From assembly GCA_051382295.1 (NCBI GenBank), contig JBBCAW010000128.1, positions 1 through 27,906 on the forward strand: DNA of 27,906 nt, in the 5' to 3' direction. This DNA is from Bdellovibrionota bacterium FG-1 (GTDB taxonomy: Bacteria > Bdellovibrionota > UBA1018). Positions 1,525 to 6,354 of this stretch are shown here, one piece after another. The notes beneath the pieces are model-generated. The model did not search any database, was not told where the DNA came from, and saw nothing but the letters and a program-made list of their open reading frames with translations. Both the position numbers and the translations under genes were made by a program. Position 1 is the first letter of the stretch; each line of letters begins with the position of its first letter.

Positions 1525-1716
1525 ATGTTTAAGCCAAGAAAAACTGAGCCCGTTAAAAATTTATCCCCAAAAAAATGGCGAGAAATGACTCGGCCCGTAC
1601 CTGTTGATGTATTTGAAAAGCGGCTTACTGAAACGCGAAACTTGGCGAATTTCTTCGAGGTTATTACACCTGAAGAAGCGGTCCTTCTTCTAAAGCAAAA
1701 ATTAGTAGCCCGCTAG
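1525..1716 (+). CDS. Small basic hypothetical protein (candidate antitoxin)
   Basis: 63-aa ORF with purine-rich leader; ends 9 nt before the GNAT gene, the usual antitoxin position. Confidence 0.65.
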   Translation: MFKPRKTEPVKNLSPKKWREMTRPVPVDVFEKRLTETRNLANFFEVITPEEAVLLLKQKLVAR

Positions 1717-1725
1717 AGTCGCGTC

Positions 1726-2358
1726 GTGGATAAAATTTCTTTCGCGGGTCTTAGCAAAGATATTCTGGATCTCATTAAGGAGAATAACCTTTTTTCGAGC
1801 GGCAACCGTGCTGTCGACGAATTTCTCTTTGATGATGCTATCCAAATGCAGGAGCAAAAATATGTCCAGACGACCGTGGCCCTGCGAGGCTCGGATGTAG
1901 TTGGCTACTACGGTCTTTCGACCGACGCGTTAGAGGTGCAGTCCAAAGAGAAGGACCGATTCAAGCGTCATCATCGGTGGTTTCCGGCAATCAAACTTCA
2001 GTGGCTCGGAATCAATAGTGTTAATCAAAGTGTCGGGCACGGCAAAATCTTGATGAGAAGGATCGCGGGTCATATTGTCGAAATGAACTCCTACACTAAA
2101 TGTGATTGGGCTGCTGGCTGTAGGTTTATTACGCTGGATGCACAGTTTGACCATGCAAAGAGTAAAGATAAAAAGCTAAATCCCGTCGGTTTCTATGAGA
2201 AAATCGGCTTCCAGTTTTGCGATAAAATGAGCTACAAAGAACGCTTTTTACGTTACAAAAACGGCGCTAATAATGGCAGAGGAAAGGGAACTGTCAGCAT
2301 GTATTACGACGTATTCGATGATAGCGGGGCACTTTTTGAAGGTTTTACACGTGGATAA
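1726..2358 (+). CDS. GNAT-family N-acetyltransferase, toxin-like (AtaT/TacT-related) subgroup
   Basis: FSSGN..VDEFL, VVGYYGLS, PAIKLQWLGI, acetyl-CoA loop QSVGHG (Q-x-x-G-x-G), RFITLDA and GFYEKIGF. Confidence 0.85.
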   Translation: MDKISFAGLSKDILDLIKENNLFSSGNRAVDEFLFDDAIQMQEQKYVQTTVALRGSDVVGYYGLSTDALEVQSKEKDRFKRHHRWFPAIKLQWLGINSVNQSVGHGKILMRRIAGHIVEMNSYTKCDWAAGCRFITLDAQFDHAKSKDKKLNPVGFYEKIGFQFCDKMSYKERFLRYKNGANNGRGKGTVSMYYDVFDDSGALFEGFTRG

Positions 2359-2692
2359 CAGCCAAATTTGTAACTTAATCAGCCAAGTGACTAAAGGTTG
2401 GACACCCTTGCGCGTGGAACTCCTGGAACCAGCCGGAAGTTCATTTACCCTGCGGATTGTATCGGATCACTTTATCGGAGTGCCAATGCTGAAGCGGTTT
2501 GATGAGGTCACGGGACTTCTTCACACCCAACTTCCTGAACTGGTTAAGGCGCACCTTTTCGACCTTGAAACTTGGACTGCCGCCGAGTTTACCGACCTCG
2601 AAAAGCAGGGCAAAACATCCACAGCCCTCTCTCCCTCTGGACACGGTTCAATGGCCGCACACGGCCCCGCAACCAACGACGCAGGTCTCTAA
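2351..2692 (+). CDS. Divergent BolA/IbaG-like protein (113 aa)
   Basis: GTG overlaps the GNAT 3' end (GTGGATAA). FTLRIVSDHFIGVPMLKRFDEV and TWTAAEF resemble BolA F.V.IVS..F.G...V.RHR.V and T.TPEEW. Confidence 0.55.
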   Translation: MDNSQICNLISQVTKGWTPLRVELLEPAGSSFTLRIVSDHFIGVPMLKRFDEVTGLLHTQLPELVKAHLFDLETWTAAEFTDLEKQGKTSTALSPSGHGSMAAHGPATNDAGL

Positions 2693-2886: not shown

Positions 2887-2945
2887 ACGACTCAAAATCG
2901 TGTATCCTTACGGGTGTGAGAGTTCGATTCTCTCCGGAGCCACCA
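2887..2945 (+). tRNA. tRNA-Leu(CAA) 3' fragment (att site, not an intact tRNA)
   Basis: Anticodon arm ACGA-CTCAAAA-TCGT, long variable arm, T arm GAGAG-TTCGATT-CTCTC, acceptor strand CGGAGCC-A-CCA. No D arm or 5' acceptor strand upstream. Confidence 0.85.
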
Positions 2946-2971
2946 CTAAAAAGGTATCAGGTTACTTTTTG

Positions 2972-3682
2972 ATGCTCGCCGCATTAATCCTTCTCCCCTG
3001 GACCCTCTCCAATACCTTCGCCGCTGACGTGCATCTCGCGGTCGCAGCTAACTTCATGGCTCCGATGGAAAATTTTTCGACGCGATTTTCTGAAAAAACA
3101 GGTCACAAACTGATCATTAGTTATGGAGCCACGGGTAAGCTTTACTCCCAAATCATGAACGGCGCACCCTTTGACGTTTTTCTTTCCGCTGACCAAGAAG
3201 CTCCAAAAAAACTCATCCAAGAAAACCAAGCCGTCAACGGAACTCAGTTCACTTATACGACCGGCCGTCTCGCTCTTTGGAGTGCAGACCCAAAAAGAGT
3301 GGACTCAAGGGGCGAGGTCCTCGCAAAAGCCGAATTCAAACATCTTGCCATCGCAAATCCGAAGCTCGCCCCCTATGGCGTAGCGGCCCAGCAAACGCTA
3401 GAAAAACTAGGACTATGGCACAAATTCCAACCTCGCTTAGTTCTAGGAGAGAGCATTACGCAAGCCTACCAATTTATCGCCACCGGCAATGCCGAGTTAG
3501 GGTTTGTGGCCCTCTCGCAGATCAAACAAGAAGGCAAAAAGCCTGAGGGTTCGTTTTGGTTGGTTCCGCAGACGATGTATTCGCCTCTGAGACAGGACGC
3601 AGTTTTATTAGAGAAGGGCAAAAACAACGTTGCCGCCAAGCAGTTTCTCGAATTTTTGAGGCCTAGCAATGCCACACCTTAA
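2972..3682 (+). CDS. modA: Molybdate ABC transporter substrate-binding protein
   Basis: Hydrophobic leader, [28 protein letters not shown] and [10 protein letters not shown]. Start placed at ATG 2972 because the longer ORF start lies within the tRNA fragment. Confidence 0.93.
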
Positions 3683-4343
3683 CTTGACCCCAGTCTGGCT
3701 CACCCTCGCCCTGGCACTGATCACGACCCTGCTTCTTTTGCTCATCAGCACCCCAATTGCGTGGTGGCTAGCACGAACGAGGTCTCCTCTTCGCGCGCCC
3801 ATTGGGGCCCTTATTTCATTGCCGCTTGTCTTGCCACCCACCGTTCTGGGCTTTTATCTCTTAGTGCTCATGGGGCCCTCAGGCCCCATAGGCCTTCTCA
3901 CTGAATCTCTGGGCTTAGGATCACTCCCCTTCACCTTTACCGGTTTAGTTGTGGGCTCAGTCCTTTATTCATTGCCCTTTGTGGTCCAACCTATTCAAAA
4001 TGCTTTTGAGGCAATCGGGCCTCGCCCCCTGGAAATTGCGGCCACGCTCAGAGCCGGGCCGTGGGATCGCTTCTTTACGGTGGCACTGCCGATGGCAAGG
4101 TCGGGTTTTTTTACGGCTACGGTGCTTGGATTTGCTCATACGGTGGGCGAGTTTGGCGTGGTGCTCATGATTGGCGGCAACATCCCAGGACGCACCCAAG
4201 TCCTATCGATTACGATCTATGACCACGTGGAGGCGCTTGAGTACACCCAAGCTCACTGGCTTGCAGGCGGAATGCTCCTATTTTCTTTCATCACTCTGCT
4301 CATCATGAATTTGCGCCGTCAGCCACTGAGGCTCATCACATGA
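3669..4343 (+). CDS. modB: Molybdate ABC transporter permease
   Basis: [15 protein letters not shown] and [20 protein letters not shown]; overlaps modA and modC. Confidence 0.95.
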
Positions 4344-5026
4344 CCACACATAGCATCAGCATTAGCGCTTCGGTCCGGGCAAAGGTCGGAGACTTCAGTC
4401 TGGATATGACCTTTGAAACGCCAGGAACCGGCGTTACCGCGATCGTTGGGCGCTCAGGCTCGGGAAAAACAACCCTCCTTCGCTGGATGGCTGGGTTGGG
4501 CCGAAAATATGTGGGCGATCTTTCGGTTAACAAGGAGGTCTGGGAGGATTCGAAACGCCGGATTTTCGTGCCGCCCCATCAGCGCGCAGTCGGCTTGGTT
4601 TTTCAGGATGCCGGTCTGTTTCCACACCTGAGCGTCCAGGGCAATCTTCGCTACGGCTTCAGTCGAGTTCCTCAACAAGAAAGGCAGCCCGATTTCGATC
4701 AGATCGTTGATCTTTTGGGACTCAGAGTGTTTCTGGATCGCATGCCTTTTCAACTCTCGGGGGGCGAAAAACAGCGCGTCGCGATCGCTCGAAGCCTATT
4801 GGCCAGCCCCAAGTTACTTCTGCTCGATGAACCACTCACAGGCCTGGATACCACCAGCAAAGATGAAGTTTTAGACTATCTCAATCGTGTTAAAACCGAA
4901 TCTAAAATTCCTGTCATTTATGTGAGCCACTCCATGGACGAGGTGCGGCGTCTTTCGGACCATCTGATTCAAATTGAAAACGGAAAAATTTCGATCAGTC
5001 CGACCAAAGTGTCCGGAGCGAACTAG
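4340..5026 (+). CDS. modC: Molybdate ABC transporter ATPase (short form, no TOBE domain)
   Basis: Walker [32 protein letters not shown] overlap with modB. Confidence 0.92.
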
Positions 5027-5102
5027 CCGTCTCCTTACTCTGGTCCGAACCCTGCAACGATCCTCATTGCGAATAAACACTAAATTTTGGAGGAATTCCT
5101 TT

Positions 5103-5645
5103 ATGGCAATACGCAATATGTTACCCAGTGCTTGGCGCGGTGAACGCAGTGTTTGGAATCCGATGCGTGAAATGAACCGACTTCAACGAAGAATGGACCG
5201 CATGTTCCAAGAATTCTTACCCGAATCCTTCTCGTCCATGACTAGCCCGGCCGGCGACCTCCTATCAGCCGATGAAAACATCGAATTCACTCCGGCTTGC
5301 GATATCGCAGAAACCAAGAGCCATTATCTCGTGACGTTCGATTTACCCGGCATGAAGAAAAGTGATGTCAAAATCGACCTTCAGGACAATCAACTGACGG
5401 TATCTGGCGAGCGCAAGCACGAAACACATGAAGAAGAACAAGGCCGAGTAAGTCGCGAACGTTATTACGGCGCATTTTGCCGTGCATTTACGCTTCCTTC
5501 AAAAGTGAATGCCGACAAGGTCGAGGCCAACTACGAAAATGGTGTCCTACAAATTGCCATTCCAAAAACAGAAGTTTCAGTCGGCAAACAAATTCCGATC
5601 AAAGAAGGAAAACTCTTAGAATCCAAGGCCACGAAAGCGGCCTAA
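5103..5645 (+). CDS. Hsp20/alpha-crystallin small heat shock protein
   Basis: GGAGG before ATG 5103; DLPGMKK, LTVSGER, ERYYGAF.RAFTLP and ANYENGVLQIAIPK. Confidence 0.95.
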   Translation: MAIRNMLPSAWRGERSVWNPMREMNRLQRRMDRMFQEFLPESFSSMTSPAGDLLSADENIEFTPACDIAETKSHYLVTFDLPGMKKSDVKIDLQDNQLTVSGERKHETHEEEQGRVSRERYYGAFCRAFTLPSKVNADKVEANYENGVLQIAIPKTEVSVGKQIPIKEGKLLESKATKAA

Positions 5646-5678
5646 TCCCAGATTTTAAGATCACGAGAAAAGTTGTTT

Positions 5679-5710
5679 GACGGGTGAGGGAGGCGCACTC
5701 CCCGCCCGTC
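5679..5710. terminator. GC-rich hairpin between convergent hsp20 and GST genes
   Basis: GACGGGTGAGGGAG-GCGCA-CTCCCCGCCCGTC imperfect inverted repeat. Confidence 0.6.
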
Positions 5711-5727
5711 CTCCTATCCAAGACGAC

Positions 5728-6354
5728 TCAACTCAGTCCCTCTTCTTTTAGAACTTTTGTGACCGCCGGGCGAGCGGCAATGCGACCCATATAGCTCTGA
5801 ATATTGGGATAGGGAGTCGTCGGAATTTCAAGCCACTGGGTCCAACCCACGACCACAAACGCATAAGCGTCCGCTGCGGTAAAAGTCTTGCCCATCAAAT
5901 AATCTTTTCCGGCGAGTTTCGCATCCAAGTATCGCAAACACTCATTTGACCTTTCGACCATGTAATTGCGAACAGTCGCCTGAATGGTTTTGTCATCCGA
6001 AATTCGAGACACTGAAAACAATCCACCAATGCTTTTATGCAAGTCGGAGCAAACAAAAGAAAGCCAATTCAAAGCTTCAGCTCGCTCAAAAGTTCCAGAT
6101 GACGGCAAAAGATTCTTACTGGGCGCAAGATCGGCGACATAGGCATGAATGGCAAAATTTTGATCCAGCTGTCTACCCTCATCCGTAATCAAAACAGGCA
6201 AGGTTCCGAGAGGATTGAGCTTAGCCACGACCGCAATATTAGGATCGGACGCATTATCCCAATCGACTTCAATCGCTTCATATTTGAGACCCGATTCTTC
6301 AAGTGTAATGTGACAGGAAGTCGAACAAGACCCTGCGGAGTAATAGAGTTTCAT
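5728..6354 (-). CDS. Glutathione S-transferase (beta class-like)
   Basis: MKLYYSAGSCS, LNPLGTLPVL, FTAADAYAFVV and RIAARPAV. Confidence 0.93.
   Translation of the reverse strand: MKLYYSAGSCSTSCHITLEESGLKYEAIEVDWDNASDPNIAVVAKLNPLGTLPVLITDEGRQLDQNFAIHAYVADLAPSKNLLPSSGTFERAEALNWLSFVCSDLHKSIGGLFSVSRISDDKTIQATVRNYMVERSNECLRYLDAKLAGKDYLMGKTFTAADAYAFVVVGWTQWLEIPTTPYPNIQSYMGRIAARPAVTKVLKEEGLS

Follow-up and report, generated by a model that had tools for sequence, protein, structure and literature searches.

The window, the whole stretch of 27,906 nucleotides analysed here, is contig C128 of genome G000 (4.44 Mb, 51% GC, 97.7% complete), and it carries three intact plus-strand genes at the end of a putative integrated island. 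The first (ORF1, 1525–1716, ATG start) encodes a small, basic protein of 63 aa, which is predicted to bind the product of the second, a GNAT acetyltransferase of 210 aa related to AtaT and TacT (1726–2358, GTG start). The third gene (2351–2692) encodes a protein with a divergent BolA fold, 113 aa long when counted from the GTG at 2351; its frame is already open from an ATG at 2273, and homologues begin at the position matching 2351. The preliminary description had reported three co-oriented, tightly coupled ORFs, and the coordinates, the 9-nt gap between ORF1 and the GNAT gene and the 8-nt overlap of the GNAT and BolA-like genes are all reproduced. Beneath this last junction a HEPN gene has left a remnant of its 3′ end (about 2317–2378, plus strand, stop codon 2376–2378). 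The GC content is 0.417 in ORF1, 0.447 in the GNAT gene and 0.526 in the BolA-like gene, with 0.51 for the genome. No convincing promoter, terminator or Rfam match was found at the locus, and a comparison of the window proteins with PADLOC (2023 library) returned zero matches.

The attR site that had been placed after the three genes is confirmed: its core (2887–2945, plus strand) is the 3′ 59 nt of tRNA-Leu(CAA) and is identical to C59:23634–23692, part of an intact tRNA-Leu(CAA) gene (C59:23606–23692) that is followed by a 384-aa integrase-like ORF. Two tandem TTTGGGAAAC repeats (2739–2759, no strand assigned) are likely to serve as arm-type sites for the integrase, and paired 10-nt TTTGGGAAAC repeats occur on the element side of both cores, that of the window attR and that of the C59 tRNA gene. 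We infer, rather than observe, that C128 and C59 are the two ends of one island, because the contigs are not joined in the assembly.

Several other features surround the three genes. Within positions 1–477 is a tyrosine-recombinase fragment (130–477) that shares 92% identity with a 311-aa gene, intact on C37; the fragment is cut at about 127 by sequence common to the end of C7 and similar to those at the ends of C101 and C158, which is probably a repeat that inserted here. A 78-aa ORF at 763–1015 contains a hydrophobic segment rich in Gly and Leu and is followed by a strong hairpin-poly-T; paralogous ends occur on C37, there behind the recombinase, and on C21, and the ORF has no match in Pfam, PADLOC or NCBIfam. 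On the minus strand at 1032–1260 is a broken fragment that by eye resembles the end of a receiver domain, and similar DNA is found on C35, C92 and C93. An element of roughly 40 nt directly follows attR (2947–2990) and has 14 matches in the genome, itself included, with two copies directly behind tRNA genes (tRNA-Met on C12 and tRNA-Val on C78). The region beyond attR (2900–6354) holds ordinary genes, for a molybdate-type ABC transporter, Hsp20 and glutathione S-transferase.

The GNAT protein and its predicted small partner

The GNAT protein had been assigned to the AtaT/TacT type from its motifs, an assignment that is upheld by both profile and structure comparison. A HMMER search over 1.84 billion representatives gave 168 matches at E≤0.001, query included; identity to the window protein is 24–43% among the 149 other matches listed, the closest sharing about 35–40%. 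A word-based search found the query only, the single protein matched 0 of 60 relatives, and a single-sequence search of the PDB was uninformative. A profile of 128 sequences, compared with the PDB, is most similar to AtaT (E 3e-33), KacT (4e-31), GmvT (4e-31) and TacT (5e-30); after the tRNA-acetylating toxins, which extend to E 1e-26, come one entry at 2e-15 and then other GNATs at 1e-10 or weaker. AtaT, KacT, GmvT and TacT are likewise the top Foldseek matches of the predicted model (pLDDT 89). The QSVGHG motif named in the preliminary description is present at residues 101–106, the acetyl-CoA loop is kept (G104 and G106) and the catalytic tyrosine is Y157; G106 and Y157 correspond to G108 and Y144 of AtaT, whose residue numbers were counted by hand from the profile alignment. 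The protein is also longer, as had been noted (210 aa against a median of 181 aa for the 149 homologues listed), and its basic insert comprises residues 164–190 with a net charge of +5.

The GNAT protein thus shares its fold, sequence family, acetyl-CoA loop and catalytic tyrosine with the toxins of AtaR-AtaT, KacA-KacT, TacA-TacT and GmvA-GmvT (reference structures of RHH/DUF1778-GNAT systems: PDB 7chd, 6gtr, 5zgn, 5fvj and 9ilr), but differs from AtaT-type toxins in having tryptophan in place of Arg95, an acidic helix 1 and the basic insert. W93 occupies the position of R95, at which 105 of the 128 homologues have arginine, and H34, R37 and R40 of AtaT are D37, Q40 and E43, so that helix 1 is acidic or neutral. 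In the passages available from the AtaT study, R95 and H34/R37/R40 are described as tRNA-contact residues important for toxicity, which in the R95A mutant falls to the level of Y144F (PMC7595197). With these residues missing from the window protein, a tRNA target is not assured.

The position in the family tree is also distinct. A quick tree was built from 150 sequences (58 listed homologues, 91 GNATs from loci and the window protein). In it, one branch (SH-aLRT 100) sets the 24 RHH-linked GNATs of the phylum apart, the RHH/DUF1778 label being a reading of the upstream protein sequences rather than the outcome of a domain scan. The window GNAT lies outside this group, together with P0030, P0057 and P0066 (four members, SH-aLRT 97). 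Ordinary pairs of an RHH-type antitoxin and a GNAT occur twice in G000, at C78:72342–72806 and C3:65718–66227.

The upstream partner had been described as not RHH-like, and this stands. The 63-aa product of ORF1 has no family match in Pfam, PADLOC or NCBIfam and no detectable DNA-binding domain, and hhalign gives a probability of 0.2% against 14 RHH-type antitoxins from the phylum; the best Atlas score, 0.80, is a lead only. Kinship of ORF1 with a small-protein family marked by the motif MA[RK]PI..TP found no support, as 545 of 3000 shuffled sequences score as high, nor did kinship with four sister-type ORFs (2413 of 2947 shuffles), and the idea that ORF1 is the C-terminus of an RHH antitoxin also failed against shuffles.

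Conserved neighbours are nevertheless a property of the wider GNAT family. When GTDB genomes were scanned with one motif, 461 GNAT loci were confirmed, which places the pair in a large group, and the best 80 of these 461 were examined together with five loci on viral contigs. In 82 of these 85 loci an ORF of 48–63 aa, belonging to one family, that of the MA[RK]PI..TP motif, adjoins the GNAT gene, lying upstream in 55 and downstream and convergent in 27; the other three run into the end of a contig or locus, though the small ORF is still present in one. Twelve members of the small-ORF family were scanned and have no Pfam family at a meaningful E-value, and the family has a weak likeness to the RHH C-terminal region (hhalign 7.7%). 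The position, length and charge of ORF1 fit this small-partner slot, and the GNAT loci L144, L145, L148 and L166, in which the arginine is also missing, each have a short ORF upstream. As even the closest homologues are only about 35–40% identical to the window GNAT, their neighbourhoods are indirect evidence for the window itself. The 27 convergent loci (within L038–L086) are all archaeal by record title, the genes often overlap, and the small protein is of the same family as the bacterial upstream partner; a downstream partner on the opposite strand is unusual for a TA-like pair.

Complex modelling, which had been proposed as a check, predicts that ORF1 binds the GNAT protein, with scores of 0.77, 0.77 and 0.76 against 0.07 for the best of three controls. 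The runs agree in at least 90% of contacts with a partner pLDDT of at least 83, and in calibration 116 of 157 solved complexes and 2 of 215 mismatched pairs attained the mark applied to such scores. In the model, ORF1 wraps the enzyme: its residues 44–47 pair with strand 1 of the GNAT (residues 4–7) and its helix 49–60 packs beside it, and further predicted GNAT contacts include residues 67–75 and 82–92, which by analogy would lie next to positions equivalent to the KacT dimer surface, as far as this is described in the available part of PMC6698736. Antitoxin-GNAT complexes have already been solved, and the score may therefore partly reflect memory; memory is unlikely to be the whole story because sequence likeness is absent and the strand pairing differs, the KacA strand pairing with strand 3 of KacT (PMC6698736, in the portion available) and the modelled ORF1 strand with strand 1. 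As in RHH-GNAT systems there is a small upstream gene whose product is here predicted to wrap the enzyme, but the partner has 63 aa and no RHH fold and the GNAT falls outside the RHH-linked clade. On the basis of the model, ORF1 is likely to be an antitoxin or inhibitor of the GNAT.

A pair of this type has already been mentioned in print, and the window pair is a variant of it. The available passages of Bikmetov et al. (2022) describe GNATs outside a 'true TA clade' with short, divergent upstream ORFs that lack DNA-binding domains, a type presented there as untested, and flag this group as one without a known antitoxin (PMC9177977). The window pair resembles it in being a TA-like bicistron of an AtaT/TacT-family GNAT and an adjacent short ORF without a predictable DNA-binding domain, and the two clades may be the same; the passages at hand name no partner family, complex or function (PMC9177977). 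The confident predicted complex and the partner family present at 82 of 85 loci would bear on the question of the missing antitoxins raised in 2022.

On balance, ORF1 and the GNAT would form a type II toxin-antitoxin pair whose antitoxin has no DNA-binding domain, whereas aminoacyl-tRNA as the target is somewhat more doubtful, if still quite possible. An unlikely alternative, to be taken seriously all the same, keeps the gene history proposed below and makes the GNAT a regulated acetyltransferase with a protein or small-molecule substrate, the small ORF being its inhibitor or specificity subunit. That the R95 equivalent and the basic patch on helix 1 have been lost (PMC7595197, passages available) points this way, as do the position outside the RHH-linked clade, the statement in the accessible text of Bikmetov et al. 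that such GNATs may have other functions (PMC9177977) and the small gene that is convergent, not co-transcribed, at 27 of 85 loci, which is unusual for type II TA systems. On the other hand, every one of the best matches by structure and by profile is a tRNA-acetylating toxin, and E falls from 1e-26 to 1e-15 and 1e-10 thereafter; the small partner is near-universal; the pair is carried on the island and, in the three phages examined, between lysin and integrase; and Lys90, kept in 110 of 128 homologues, might stand in for the arginine. A toxin-antitoxin pair is the reading followed here.

The BolA-like protein and its HEPN neighbour in relatives

The third gene had been called BolA-like, and the fold search agrees in placing BolA first (Foldseek E 2e-4; VIA Z 8.9, rmsd 2.6 Å, 78 aligned residues) with MNT folds ranking lower (VIA Z 6.1–6.4), while the Pfam BolA match of the single window sequence (E 1.1e-4) is under the curated cut-off. 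The family profile matches BolA domains in the PDB at E 2e-9; all 13 family members match Pfam BolA at E≤0.5, none of the 13 matches NTP_transf_2 or Polbeta at E≤0.5, and the GS/DxD motif is not conserved. From about residue 90 the tail of the protein is disordered and acidic or polar.

BolA proteins are stress and Fe-S regulators, in which the histidines of the HAL motif and after the arginine that corresponds to Arg49 of the window family bind Fe-S clusters. The window family shares the fold and the VS..F.G motif with the housekeeping proteins BolA and IbaG, but the HAL motif is found in 0 of 13 members, no member has a histidine after the invariant Arg49, and no glutaredoxin lies beside family members. 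G000 carries a separate, ordinary BolA-glutaredoxin pair on C55, and such ordinary pairs are separate, weaker matches to the family. A homologue with 76% identity, P0006, is known. A reverse profile search of 281 genomes gave no new strong member; its six strong matches outside the window all come from the training set, and the search therefore shows solely that no HEPN-free strong member appeared. Viral scans and plasmid searches found nothing, and a metagenome candidate (L036) was dropped because it matched over 17 residues in a frame that is not homologous. Another divergent subfamily of BolA-like proteins, 107 aa long and also without HAL, occurs at L142:3639–3962 (G026) and L143:3866–4189 (G104); these relatives are weaker matches (E about 1e-13) and have no HEPN, GNAT or glutaredoxin gene adjoining.

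In relatives the BolA-like gene follows a HEPN gene. When the HEPN protein of G084 was compared with 401 genomes of the phylum, 10 matched, eight of them with a BolA-like gene behind (seven with a 28-nt overlap and one with 25 nt); the other two are a fragment without a C-terminus and a weak match (E 7e-4) to an unrelated ORF. With the G084 query locus added, the count comes to nine loci, spread over four families of the phylum (L140:3082–3779, L168:1483–2171, L169, L170, L171, L172, L173, L174 and L141), in eight of which the HEPN is full-length; two BolA-like relatives from the same organism family as the window are among those that follow HEPN with the 28-nt overlap. All eight aligned HEPNs match PF05168, with His42, Glu46, His69 and Arg111-Tyr112 invariant, and PADLOC gave one weak match for the eight (E 0.012). 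The pair of G084 adjoins two other TA-like pairs and a transposase-like ORF, and two of the nine loci are, by eye, directly behind an integrase-like ORF. In G002 (L141:1–1248) the HEPN gene is truncated on its 5′ side, and repeated pieces of a single other gene flank the pair; HEPN loss beside an intact BolA-like gene is thus seen a second time.

The arrangement recalls HEPN-MNT toxin-antitoxin systems (HEPN-T/PF05168; PMC3710099, PMC2701414), to which it is similar both in the PF05168 assignment and in the overlap of the HEPN 3′ end by a small gene, MNT in L178 and L179 and BolA-like here; it differs in that the partner is BolA-like and conserves no nucleotidyltransferase GS..DxD motif. When the HEPN profile was compared with 201 genomes of another phylum, three weak matches were obtained, with MNT behind two and another ORF behind one. 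The MNT of L178, which lies behind HEPN with a 34-nt overlap, matches the BolA-like profile at 16 bits through the shared motif VVS..FEG....R, against 7.6 for the best of 886 shuffles and 23–52 bits for other BolAs. This score hints at a relationship between BolA and MNT, and the same operon slot and partly shared fold make a link of the family to MNT antitoxins possible. The idea that the BolA-like protein is no more than an inactivated MNT found no support, since BolA scores higher by profile and by fold, although an MNT may still be its origin.

The literature, mostly non-subscription papers whose supplements could list such neighbours, yielded no GNAT-BolA or HEPN-BolA system; 'BolA' is absent from the main text, as far as available, of surveys of HEPN proteins (PMC3710099) and of type II TA systems (PMC2701414), and two matches on BolA (PMC8195603 and PMC7641849) are unrelated in the parts at hand. 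The HEPN and BolA-like genes are likely to be an apparently undescribed toxin-antitoxin pair, which is a more novel lead than the GNAT pair and is intact in relatives only. With a BolA family stably placed behind a HEPN RNase, the BolA fold would acquire an antitoxin role.

A HEPN remnant beneath the junction

In the HEPN frame the window reads R-F-Y-T-W-I-T-A-K-F-V-T up to a stop codon at 2376–2378, in the position that the HEPN stop has in the relatives, which yields the 28-nt overlap of the family with the BolA-like start. Positions 2339–2378 are identical to the HEPN end of G351 at 32 of 40 nt, and 17 codons, scored against six distant HEPNs, beat all 10000 random stretches of the genome. 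Within the overlap, five of nine codons agree with G084 when read in the HEPN frame and two of nine in the BolA frame, a score that 44 of 20000 synonymous recodings reach. For the seven codons ahead of the BolA-like start the result is 17 of 20000 against G084 and, less strong, 402 of 10000 against distant HEPNs; part of this likeness could come from a shared ribosome-binding site. Further upstream, residues 198–205 of the GNAT, past the last conserved motif of its family, agree with the HEPN columns that come before (88 of 20000 random sequences score as high), and residues 189–194 do not (4492 of 20000). About 20 HEPN codons are left in the window and no intact HEPN stands there, nor was a HEPN of the PF05168 pair family found elsewhere in G000 (97.7% complete). 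It is therefore very likely that a HEPN gene once stood in this slot, and because the family follows HEPN elsewhere and a remnant persists here, the GNAT pair most likely replaced it.

An error of assembly or sequencing at the junction, such that the gene order or the GNAT end is not real, is very improbable. Only a single assembly is at hand and the HEPN-like codons shift frame by one base near 2340, as an artefact might produce, but the junction is internal to a single contig and no repeat was detected at it, both proteins are complete (GNAT 210 aa, BolA-like 113 aa), and most of the HEPN is missing in whatever frame.

The preliminary description had proposed a tripartite system of the small protein, the GNAT and the BolA-like protein, and this is not supported by the comparison of neighbourhoods: a BolA-like gene adjoins the GNAT in 0 of 85 loci of the broad family, 0 of 29 in the phylum and 0 of 23 on plasmids, phages and genomes, which for the BolA link is the outcome that the description had itself named as refuting. 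The functional form of that idea, in which the BolA-like protein was recruited after the loss of HEPN as a second regulator, chaperone or sensor, seems decidedly improbable, though less so than an artefact. It would account for three ORFs that are intact and coupled through a 9-nt gap and an 8-nt overlap, and a BolA-like homologue with 76% identity exists (P0006), albeit as a sequence alone; against it, no second example of the triad appeared in any search, the GC content is unequal between the parts, and the HEPN remnant can still be recognised, which makes the junction young.

A probable mosaic of two modules

The locus is probably a mosaic of two modules, a pair of small protein and GNAT and the leftover of a HEPN module with its orphan BolA-like gene, so that two two-gene modules emerge in place of the supposed three-part system. 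The GC content steps from 0.42 and 0.45 in the GNAT pair to 0.53 in the BolA-like gene. What speaks against this reading is the state of the BolA-like ORF, which has stayed intact and coupled to the stop of the GNAT gene, although nothing would require this of a pure passenger.

In the proposed order of events, a low-GC cassette of ORF1 and the GNAT gene would have recombined into the terminal slot of the island, replacing all but about 20 codons of HEPN. ORF1 would bind the GNAT and keep it inactive; once freed, the GNAT may acetylate its target, most simply aminoacyl-tRNA, which would block translation and arrest growth, and such arrest could favour retention of the island or abort phage infection. 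Both the sequence of events and the defence role are put forward as a model. The BolA-like gene would now be a passenger whose natural HEPN partner is lost, and it is probably still translated or co-translated because its start region is kept.

A wider and more tentative proposal, for which the balance lies somewhat on the side of doubt, is that HEPN and the BolA-like protein form an undescribed TA family of the mobile islands of the phylum, in which a BolA-fold protein stripped of its histidines replaces the nucleotidyltransferase antitoxin and neutralises the HEPN ribonuclease by binding. The window would then capture such a module as it is overwritten by a second type of TA system, a GNAT with a tiny antitoxin that does not bind DNA.

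Pairs of small ORF and GNAT are also carried by phages. In phages of Bacillus, Latilactobacillus and Listeria they lie between lysin and integrase, and further examples are carried by an Acinetobacter phage and by a P2-like phage of Vibrio (L145:1309–2046, L148:1244–2061, L166:1286–2001, L146:1294–2004 and L147:204–1012). These pairs are candidates for prophage defence or maintenance genes. A GNAT domain is also contained in the integron defence gene Brc113, according to the portion available of 10.1101/2024.07.02.601719.
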